50,379 nt of DNA, taken from assembly GCA_964589005.1 (NCBI GenBank), contig CAZPQI010000002.1:1-50379 (forward strand), in the 5' to 3' direction. Positions within the stretch are counted from its first letter, which is position 1; every line of letters begins with the position of its first letter. The stretch is from an uncultured Candidatus Saccharibacteria bacterium. GTDB taxonomy: Bacteria; Patescibacteriota; Minisyncoccia; Phycocordibacterales; UBA2100. The position numbers were made by a program, and so were the translations under genes. The notes below the pieces were generated by a model that worked only from the letters and a program-made list of their open reading frames with translations, did no database searches and was not told the DNA's origin. This document shows, in pieces, positions 48,729 to 49,550 of the stretch.

Positions 48729-49550
48729 ATGAAACACATAGACACACATTCACATCTCTACGAAAAGAAATTCGATGAAGACAGGGCGGAAGTTTTACAA
48801 CGAATGAAAGAACAGAGTGTTTCAACTATTGTAGTGGGAACGTGTTTAGAAACGAGCAAAAAGGCCGTTGAGCTTGCGCGCGCCGAAGGCGCGCGCGACG
48901 TCGTGTTAGGTGCAACCATTGGCGTACACCCAACAGACACAAGCGAAAAGTTCAATGTTGAAGCTTTTACCAACTTACTAGATAAGGGGACGTCCGACGT
49001 CCCCTTATCTAGAGTAGTAGGAGTTGGTGAGTGTGGTTTTGATTACTACCGTACGCCGCGCGACGAAGTGTATATACACCAGCGTGAAATTTTTGAAGCG
49101 CAAGTAGTATTTGCAGCAGAAAATGACTTACCACTTATGCTGCATATCCGTCCGTCAGATGGTACCACTGACGCGCATGACGATGCACTTGAAGTGTTGC
49201 GACTTCATCAAAAAATATATGGTGATACCATTCGCGGCAATGTGCACTTTTTTACCTCGACAAAAGAAATTGCTCGGGAATATTTGGAACTTGGTTTTAC
49301 CATAGCATTCCCCGGCGTAATAACATTCGTACCCGAATTACACGAAGTAGTGCGTGATGTTCCATTAGATATGATGTTAGCTGAAACCGACGCGCCTTAC
49401 GCGACTCCTGTACCACACAGAGGAAAACGAAACGAACCTGTGTTTGTTATTGATACTATTCGAGCGATAGCAGAAATTCGAGGAGAAGATTTTGAAATGG
49501 TAAGCACGCAACTTACAGAAAATGCAAAAGCACTGTTTCTGGCTTATTAG
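48729..49550 (+). CDS. tatD: TatD-family metal-dependent hydrolase/DNase
   Basis: MKHIDTHSHL, GVGECGFDYY, LPLMLHIR, HFFTS, and ETDAPY, the TatD metal ligand motifs. Confidence 0.9.
   Translation: MKHIDTHSHLYEKKFDEDRAEVLQRMKEQSVSTIVVGTCLETSKKAVELARAEGARDVVLGATIGVHPTDTSEKFNVEAFTNLLDKGTSDVPLSRVVGVGECGFDYYRTPRDEVYIHQREIFEAQVVFAAENDLPLMLHIRPSDGTTDAHDDALEVLRLHQKIYGDTIRGNVHFFTSTKEIAREYLELGFTIAFPGVITFVPELHEVVRDVPLDMMLAETDAPYATPVPHRGKRNEPVFVIDTIRAIAEIRGEDFEMVSTQLTENAKALFLAY
48876..48896. repeat. GC-only palindrome GCGCGCGCC-GAA-GGCGCGCGC in frame within tatD
   Basis: Perfect 9-bp arms that encode ARAEGAR. Confidence 0.9.
48978..49012. repeat. 35-nt perfect palindromic element (16+3+16) in frame within tatD
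   Basis: CTAGATAAGGGGACGT-CCG-ACGTCCCCTTATCTAG. It encodes LDKGTSDVPLSR just upstream of the conserved GVGECGFDY motif. Confidence 0.95.

Follow-up and report, generated by a model that had tools for sequence, protein, structure and literature searches.

A perfect palindrome inside tatD of a genome-reduced bacterium is probably an intragenic hairpin repeat cognate to an IS200/IS605-type transposase subfamily

A perfect palindrome lies in frame within tatD

The DNA examined here (the window: 50,379 nucleotides (nt), positions 1 to 50,379 of contig CAZPQI010000002.1) comes from the genome of an uncultured bacterium deposited as Candidatus Saccharibacteria (GCA_964589005.1; 821 kb in 46 contigs, 41% GC, a 94%-complete assembly). 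We call this source genome G000 and its contigs C1, C5, C9, C18 and C35; the relatives of its UvrB and TatD proteins bear the source names Kaiserbacteria or Paceibacterota. On the forward strand, the open reading frame (ORF) at 48729-49550 is an intact tatD gene for a TatD-family metal-dependent DNase/hydrolase, with a full-length match to Pfam TatD_DNase (PF01026, 219 bits) and the PDB homologues 1j6o, 6l25 and 1yix. Within it, positions 48978-49012 read CTAGATAAGGGGACGTC-C-GACGTCCCCTTATCTAG, a perfect palindrome of 17+1+17 when viewed as a duplex and a hairpin of 16 bp with a 3-nt loop when viewed as a single strand. The palindrome starts at codon 84 and is translated as LDKGTSDVPLSR (L84 D K G T S D V P L S R95), directly followed by the V-V-G-V-G-E-C-G strand with its conserved Glu. 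A preliminary description of this DNA had reported a 16+3+16 inverted repeat placed in frame in tatD before the GVGECG motif; its sequence, coordinates and hairpin form were exact, and the reading frame and the full-length Pfam match bear out the position inside an intact gene.

Perfect palindromes with arms of at least 17 and a loop of 0-8 are expected by chance about 2.6e-5 times per 50 kb and 4e-4 times per genome. The folding energy as single-stranded DNA is -16.6 kcal/mol for the 35-nt form (z = -8.3 versus shuffles) and -12.1 kcal/mol for its 27-nt core, a 13-bp stem (z = -6.0); the RNA context of the palindrome folds at -43 kcal/mol (z = -5.9). An intrinsic terminator was considered for the tatD copy and rejected, there being no U-tract after the hairpin. 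We compared the contigs assembled from three seawater metagenome runs of one study (X1-X3). The palindrome is identical in contigs from all three runs, and is thus real DNA and no artefact. Assemblers often break at palindromes, and the X2 assembly ends exactly at this one (48995/48999); contigs of the two other runs cross it without differences. No polymorphism of the palindrome was seen in these data, which are assembled contigs and not raw reads. A relative that co-occurs in the seawater samples lacks the tatD insert.

An AlphaFold model of TatD built with 26 homologues has a mean pLDDT (predicted local distance difference test) of 93.5 and a pTM (predicted template modelling score) of 0.91. 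The only segment with a pLDDT below 50 is residues 87-92, within the insert, which the model places between a helix (77-83) and a strand (96-102). As modelled, the insert forms a loop at the surface, disordered and on the TIM barrel's alpha-to-beta side, and the enzyme would stay intact. An alpha-to-beta loop, at the N-terminal end of a strand, lies on the face of a TIM barrel opposite the catalytic one. Loop length differs among solved TatD structures, 1j6o being just 3 residues shorter, and the loop of UvrB, which holds the second copy described below, ranges from 14 to 36 residues among relatives. Given such variable loop lengths, both sites are tolerant.

A 27-nt core recurs in uvrB and in other organisms

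G000 holds a second copy of the element in uvrB (C35:796-830), where TCATATAAGGGGACGTC-C-GACGTCCCCTTATATGA again forms a perfect 17+1+17 palindrome and, in the same frame as the tatD copy, reads S-Y-K-G-T-S-D-V-P-L-Y-E. The two copies share a 27-nt core, ATAAGGGGACGTC-C-GACGTCCCCTTAT (13+1+13; 48982-49008 in the window), which identical copies elsewhere mark as the family-constant part and which we regard as the repetitive extragenic palindromic (REP) element proper. Outside the core the outer 4 nt differ, CTAG/CTAG in tatD versus TCAT/ATGA in uvrB, and are complementary within each copy. In a genome-wide search GATAAGGGGACGT occurs once and the 27-nt core twice, so that the palindrome is not unique in the genome; uniqueness, together with a lack of population-level polymorphism, is what the preliminary description had named as speaking against its reading. 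No degenerate copies of the core were found in G000 at up to 6 mismatches; there are exactly 2 copies, both intragenic.

The core, ATAAGGGGACGTC-N-GACGTCCCCTTAT, is the same save for the free central base in G000 uvrB and in contigs L044, L045, L046 (two copies) and L047. Of these, L044 is the one contig found in a collection of species genomes, and L045-L047 are the three found in metagenomes; the latter belong to relatives of G000, with 70-74% nucleotide identity across syntenic genes. The exact core was absent from the viral contigs searched and essentially absent among 400 genomes of the order. Copies in L044, L045 and L046 are intergenic, and that in L047 lies in uvrB. On either strand the core carries TAA in one of its three frames, and of the two open frames it is always the same one in which the genic copies are read. 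The flanks of the seven exact-core copies contribute 0-6 further complementary bases (mean 3.1), far above chance.

The L044 copy calls for separate comment. This 2,068-nt contig (CAYZWM010000393.1, core at 447-473) belongs to a 4.3-Mb metagenome-assembled genome (MAG), G545, labelled Chitinophagaceae. Here the core occupies a spacer and is flanked by A5/T5, which gives it the outline of a bidirectional terminator. The sequence is also present in runs X1 and X2, and since its depth ratios are unlike those of G000, it belongs to another organism of the same community. The contig could be mis-binned or could reflect cross-phylum sharing. We rejected this MAG as the home of the repeat: it has one copy only, on a 2-kb contig whose genes have no G000 homologues. 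A hairpin with the same centre, one mismatch and another outer stem, CTGGGGATGTCAGACGTCCCCAG, was seen in a genome of another family in the order (G105:C10:6673-6691; L041, 1501-1519), in a spacer adjoining nucleotidyltransferase/HEPN-like small ORFs, and perhaps belongs to the same family of repeats as a distant member.

The tatD insertion left no footprint

We aligned TatD with 19 orthologues from the genus and family (9 of them from the same genus) and UvrB with 15. None of the 19 TatD or 15 UvrB orthologues carries the palindrome. At its site the gene is shorter, by 8 codons in 8 of the 9 same-genus TatD orthologues and by 6 codons in every one of the 15 UvrB orthologues. In the codon alignment the eight extra TatD codons are AAG GGG ACG TCC GAC GTC CCC TTA (48984-49007, forward strand), which encode K86-L93 (KGTSDVPL). 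The preliminary description had placed the palindrome in frame in a variable loop, and this holds: it is a lineage-specific insertion, and relatives free of it have shorter loops, not loops of equal length. That description had looked to an indel of about 11-12 codons; a difference exists, at 8 codons. It had recognised neither the kind of element, a REP-type hairpin linked to RAYT transposase genes, nor its insertion in further lineages.

A large protein collection yielded three more proteins with an insert at the same TatD position, P0122 (loop LLDKGTSDIPLSEVVVG), P0123 (LLDEGTSDVPSSQVVVG) and P0124 (LLNEGTSDVPSSVVAIG). The tatD DNA of P0122 and P0123 reads CTA G-[27-mer]-CG GAG/CAG. Removal of exactly 27 nt leaves CTA GCG GAG/CAG GTN…, that is LL-A-E/Q-V-VVG, with the length and pattern of insert-free orthologues (LL-x-E-x-VVG). 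Because this removal restores an orthologue-like loop, 27 nt (9 codons) were originally inserted, precisely, into a GCG codon (G|CG) of tatD, and no bases were duplicated or lost in P0122 and P0123. Such footprint-free insertion is what IS200/IS605-type chemistry would produce, unlike that of a MITE (miniature transposable element with inverted repeats). A MITE was tried as a candidate and rejected, as removal of the 27 nt leaves no duplicated bases in P0122 or P0123. A TA/AT target-site duplication of the MITE or Tc1-like kind fared no better: the element starts and ends with AT, yet with 23+2 or 25 nt the frame would be lost, and the gain in P0122 and P0123 is exactly 27 nt.

Comparison of G000 with P0122 and P0123 further shows that its right flank has been remodelled (TCT AGA, 49008-49013, forward strand). 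Insert-bearing relatives read TCG GAG GTG or TCG CAG GTT here; G000 reads TCT AGA G.., one codon fewer, so that its net gain of 8 codons is a 9-codon insertion minus one codon lost at the right flank. The change sets CTAG opposite CTAG and adds 3 paired bases, so that perfect arms of 14 become arms of 17. A shorter form with arms of 13 is present in uvrB of the relatives L047 and P0002, and the 17-bp arms of the G000 copy require just xAT to TAT. As judged from a comparison of three sequences, the arm extensions in G000 would be most simply explained by hairpin-templated (quasi-palindrome) correction; for the intergenic copies, landing in small pre-existing palindromes is an alternative. Beyond the perfect arms, ACCAACT (48970-48976) could pair with AGTTGGT (49023-49029) to give a quasi-palindrome of about 70 nt. 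In the duplex test such further pairing is marginal in tatD (P ~0.01) and in L044 (P 0.03) and not significant in five other copies. Within 48958-49032, the left flank of G000 (F-T-N) departs from the genus consensus Y-E-x at this outer pairing. The ACCAACT/AGTTGGT pairing is suggestive of further templated remodelling, at a level that is not significant after multiple-test correction.

RAYT-like transposase genes are flanked by hairpins

In L046, two identical 27-mers bracket a gene for a 218-amino-acid (aa) protein, one 35 nt past its stop and the other about 18 nt before its start. Pfam assigns it to Y1_Tnp (IS200-like) with 35.1 bits against a cut-off of 23. A homologous gene in G524, a genome of another genus in the same family (Y1_Tnp, 28.2 bits, same cut-off), has CCGGGACGTCGGACGTCCCGG hairpins on both sides; its flanks, TACCGGGACGTCGGACGTCCCGGTA and TAACCGGGACGTCGGACGTCCCGGTT, share the centre of the tatD core, with an outer stem that is compensated. 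Four Y1_Tnp genes are present in G000 itself (on C1, C5, C9 and C18), and the L046 protein is 53-56% identical to those on C9 and C18. The C9 gene carries AATGATGGACATCAGATGTCCATCATT on both sides, the C18 gene ATAGATAGTCAT-3-ATGACTATCTAT on both sides, and TAATGGTCAAGGAGCCTCCTTGACCATTA adjoins the C1 gene on one side; no flanking palindrome pair of this kind was found at the C5 gene. For the three proteins tested against NCBIfam, the best match was NF047646 REP_Tyr_transpos, the REP-associated tyrosine transposase (RAYT) family, at 45-69 bits, and this was the sole NCBIfam match for both REP-flanked proteins. An alignment of the RAYT-like proteins shows an HUH-like motif (MPNHYH) and the tyrosine motif YIHLNP. 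With hairpins bracketing the Y1_Tnp genes in L046 and G524 and on C9 and C18, these loci have the arrangement of REP/RAYT systems ('REPtrons').

Base pairing is conserved at the expense of the peptide

Among nine distinct 27-mers, 5 of the 13 stem pairs are changed on both sides and 95.7% of cells are paired; none of 500 shuffles attained the observed values. The inner 8 bp at the stem apex, GGGACGTC, are invariant. One compensated pair, A·T to G·C, alters two residues non-conservatively (K to E and L to S). Third codon positions in the insert show no pairwise differences in tatD (0/42) or uvrB (0/42), the unpaired central base excepted; the corresponding values in the 12 codons upstream of the insert are 0.60 and 0.56. 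The G·C variant is found in both the tatD (P0123/L060) and the uvrB (P0002/L057) copies of one sample, and the A·T variant in both G000 genes. L060 and L057 are about 80% identical to G000 with matching GC, and each is the sister of G000 in its gene tree. Two copies have decayed, with TTA changed to CAA in P0003 and GTC to ATC in P0122. Judged from this pattern of substitution, the constraint appears to act on the hairpin and not on the peptide.

Insert-bearers are scattered on gene trees

Gene trees were built with the insert masked. In the UvrB tree insert-bearers fall in three places (G000 with P0002; L047; P0003), a minimum of 3 changes, and monophyly was rejected by the approximately unbiased (AU) test (difference in log-likelihood 86, p = 3e-5); in the TatD tree they fall in two, (P0122,(G000,P0123)) and P0124, a minimum of 2 changes (AU test of monophyly, p = 0.006), the groups in both tests having been chosen after the trees were seen. 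The same tatD and uvrB codon sites are thus occupied in several non-sister lineages. For most insert-free neighbours simple loss is unlikely, because their loops look ancestral (S-K-G-x-Y in UvrB; LL-x-E-x-VVG in TatD). A recombinant patch that moved the uvrB copy between lineages was looked for by sliding-window identity and none was seen beyond the element, which leaves room for a very short conversion tract.

Three readings of this distribution can be offered. The site may have been hit repeatedly, each time by the lineage's own hairpin variant, which would account for both the frozen sequence and the sharing of variants within an organism. Short tracts may instead have been transferred between alleles of relatives. 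Or the insertion may be ancient, maintained at the nucleotide level and seamlessly lost several times. It is conceivable, although we would not expect it, that the hairpin is a homing or self-renewing element, with independent hits on the same tatD codon and uvrB loop by each lineage's own variant or continual overwriting from a master copy. If that were true, a RAYT-type enzyme would direct the insertion or correction of a 27-nt hairpin, site-specific and free of footprints, within essential DNA-repair genes. This would provide a first handle on REP spread, and the hairpins would possibly be co-opted as cis elements of repair genes.

Origin of the palindrome

We consider it probable, at about 0.78, that the tatD palindrome is an intragenic REP-type hairpin repeat (27 nt, a 13-bp stem and one free base) cognate to a RAYT-like (IS200/IS605-type, HUH/Y1) transposase subfamily of Kaiserbacteria-like bacteria of the candidate phyla radiation (CPR). 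By analogy with IS200/IS605 TnpA and the E. coli RAYT, the enzyme would bind the folded single strand and cut and rejoin it at the hairpin foot, a reaction by which the hairpin would be moved or copied and no footprint left. In a genome that has hardly any spacer DNA, some landings would fall in genes, and only those in frame, free of stops and in tolerant loops would survive. Both G000 copies gained their outer pairs later, the arms growing from 13-14 to 17; hairpin-templated correction of one flank against the other would be the simplest cause.

Several observations weigh against this interpretation. The RAYT-like proteins score below the NCBIfam equivalog cut-off (45-69 versus 80 bits). No RAYT gene flanked by the tatD-type hairpin was found in the 94%-complete G000 assembly, which has just the two intragenic copies, and in runs X1-X3 the contigs lack the matching RAYT unit. 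Classical REPs occur in large numbers and outside genes, unlike the tatD-type hairpin, which in G000 is genic only. GTAG stands beside none of the copies, and CGTC is at the stem apex (GGGA-CGTC-N-GACG-TCCC), not at the foot. The flanks of 12 copies hold no consensus that would mark a shared target motif, nor do the copies have a conserved target tetranucleotide beside them; as a target, a weak RAGG at 2-3 nt downstream was not trusted, being confined to genic copies. Finally, the net gain in uvrB is 18 nt and not 27, and a clean 27-nt gain is incompatible with the S-K-G-x-Y of most relatives: the uvrB event is no simple insertion, or the pre-insertion allele was shorter.

Other explanations were set against the same evidence. 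Selection may keep the stem-loop for a cis role in DNA-repair genes (tatD, uvrB and perhaps ung), for instance as the binding site of a domesticated RAYT or other protein or as an mRNA structure that tunes translation or stability. Such co-option, which would come on top of a REP origin and not replace it, is possible but rather doubtful. It would fit the compensatory changes that keep the pairing despite non-conservative residues (K to E, L to S), the frozen third positions, the occupation of the same two genes in several lineages, the variant shared by the two copies of one organism and the stable fold of the RNA context; against this, copies have decayed in P0003 and P0122, most close relatives lack the element, the matching RAYT is not in G000, the hairpin is followed by neither a U-tract nor another regulatory signature, and young copies would equally give a frozen sequence.

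Far less credible is a local origin, in which fold-back or template-switch replication of tatD made the palindrome in place as an inverted duplication, with no mobile repeat involved. The outer 3-4 bp that differ between the G000 copies yet remain complementary, the right flank that looks rewritten to fit the left, and the marginal ACCAACT/AGTTGGT pairing (P ~0.01) are of the kind that this would leave behind, and at most it accounts for the later arm extension. For the core it is contradicted by the identical 27 nt at unrelated loci and in unrelated organisms, including both sides of RAYT genes, and by orthologues that at this site resemble neither arm. We give equally little credence to selection on the protein, by which TatD and UvrB would profit from a loop made of the KGTSDVPL peptide and the symmetry of the DNA would be incidental. 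The same peptide does occur in the same frame in two proteins and several lineages, but it varies non-conservatively (KGTSDVPL, EGTSDVPS, KGTSDVPQ) while the base pairing is conserved, the synonymous variation that such selection would permit is absent, and the loop is predicted to be disordered. The idea of a chance match or assembly artefact, to which the break of the X2 assembly at the palindrome might point, can be practically dismissed: the chance expectation is about 2.6e-5 per window, contigs of the two other runs span the palindrome unbroken and without differences, and the element is also present in independent data sets of other studies.

Relation to known systems

REP/RAYT systems are reportedly the subject of work by Nunvar (2010), Bertels and Rainey (2011) and Ton-Hoang (2012). 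The loci described here resemble them in the short GC-rich hairpin repeat, in a single small HUH/Y1 transposase gene with its own hairpin type on both sides (L046, G524, C9, C18), in the presence of several RAYT genes per genome, each with its own repeat, and in the footprint-free insertion in tatD. They differ in that the palindromes are perfect 13+1+13 forms without a GTAG or CGTC foot tag, in having 2-9 copies per family instead of tens to hundreds, and in that the tatD-type hairpin has no RAYT of its own in the G000 assembly and the proteins fall under the NCBIfam RAYT cut-off. With IS200/IS605 elements and their hairpin-ended miniature derivatives they share the transposase superfamily, the lack of target duplication and presumably the recognition of single-stranded hairpins; unlike those, the 27-mer has no gene and no distinct left and right ends. 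Quasi-palindrome (template-switch) mutagenesis is said to go back to Ripley (1982) and Dutra and Lovett (2006), and palindromic elements of Rickettsia (RPEs) to Ogata (2000/2002). The clustered flank changes in G000 tatD (TCG GAG GTG to TCT AGA, with a codon lost) are like the former in that they perfect the outer stem as if templated by the opposite arm; the likeness is drawn from three sequences, and the uvrB extension, being one substitution, could be chance.

In-frame palindromic inserts in intact housekeeping genes, at tolerant loops and with orthologues that lack them, liken the present case to intragenic REPs and to RPEs. It is unlike RPE-1 in length (27 nt versus about 100-150 bp) and appears to have no sequence similarity to it; as size and host phylum differ, we do not class it among RPE-1 to RPE-8. 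REPs can sit wholly inside ORFs (Di Nocera et al. 2013, PMC3733652), and in the same study DNA-repair genes (uvrB of R. conorii, uvrA, dnaE, recB) and tRNA-related genes were over-represented among the hosts of intragenic REPs, with tRNA-synthetase genes among those documented, a bias echoed by the G000 genes that hold RAYT-type or other palindromes: tatD, uvrB, ung, miaA, ileS and glyQS. Rickettsia RPE-4 and RPE-6 are REPs of the CGTC class, and CGTC REPs are without an associated RAYT (PMC3733652); the tatD-type element differs in being tied to a flanking RAYT. Intragenic REPs, that in uvrB included, have thus been known since 2013. What is unusual here is the recurrence at the same site together with conservation at the nucleotide level: the present case differs from published intragenic REPs and RPEs in the occupation of the same codon position in non-sister lineages, with covariation and with variants shared within one organism.

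How RAYTs copy REP hairpins to new sites is a standing question; most REPs are found in spacers, which do not allow the unoccupied site to be reconstructed. Conserved host genes make these events readable: in tatD the empty site is given to the base (G|CG), later arm extension, compensatory pairs and decay can be followed, and site occupancy can be mapped on gene trees. In the literature searched, no paper joins RAYT or REPIN with Patescibacteria/CPR. The case would extend REP/RAYT systems to the genome-reduced candidate phyla radiation, where coding density would force elements into genes, and the tatD locus offers an unusually clean view of REP insertion and its after-life, with a hint of site-specific or self-renewing behaviour.

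Other palindromes and neighbouring features

The preliminary description had also suggested that more than one type of palindrome is tolerated in frame in this genome. This proved correct, as ung and miaA hold RAYT-type palindromes besides the tatD/uvrB type. At C1:101262-101290, the uracil-DNA glycosylase gene ung (Pfam UDG, 66.6 bits) contains TAATGATGGACATCCGATGTCCATCATTA, a copy of the C9 RAYT gene's flanking palindrome, which is read IMMDIGCPSL. We take this region to be of about native length compared with E. coli Ung, and the ung palindrome may be a replacement and not an insertion. The type that adjoins the C1 RAYT gene, as TGGTCAAGGAGGCTCCTTGACCA, lies at C18:569-591 inside miaA (Pfam IPPT, 216 bits) and is read SSGQGASLTIS.

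As had been stated, the sequence of the tatD palindrome bears no relation to that of the ileS/glyQS palindrome, CCTGCCTGCGCAGGCAGG. The latter, CCTGCCTGC|GCAGGCAGG in ileS (36477-36494), recurs in glyQS (41664-41699), where its arms are set about 18 nt apart by a second, imperfect palindrome, GCCTGTCCGCGCAGACGG; one element appears to be nested in the centre of another.

The 708-aa UvrB of G000 (C35) has, at residues ~417-445, a genus-specific Cys/His-rich segment (…SC.LH..Y…H…HP..C…) before VVEQIIRPTGL. It is kept in same-genus UvrBs, missing from more distant ones and unrelated to the palindrome; by its residue pattern it looks like a small zinc-binding insert.

Directly upstream of tatD, 48113-48727 hold two small ORFs of 109 and 93 aa, whose start is overlapped by a 37-nt AT-rich imperfect palindrome (48091-48158). 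The genes at the matching place in L061 carry Pfam RelB and YafQ_toxin, and L060 is without them there; the two ORFs look like a RelB/YafQ-type toxin-antitoxin pair. The ORF 44948-46030 can be aligned with the AI-2E transporter gene of L060 and L061, and at its start is a perfect 24-nt inverted repeat with a 30-nt spacer, TATACCCAGCACTAACTTCATTGT … ACAATGAAGTTAGTGCTGGGTATA (44891-44968).

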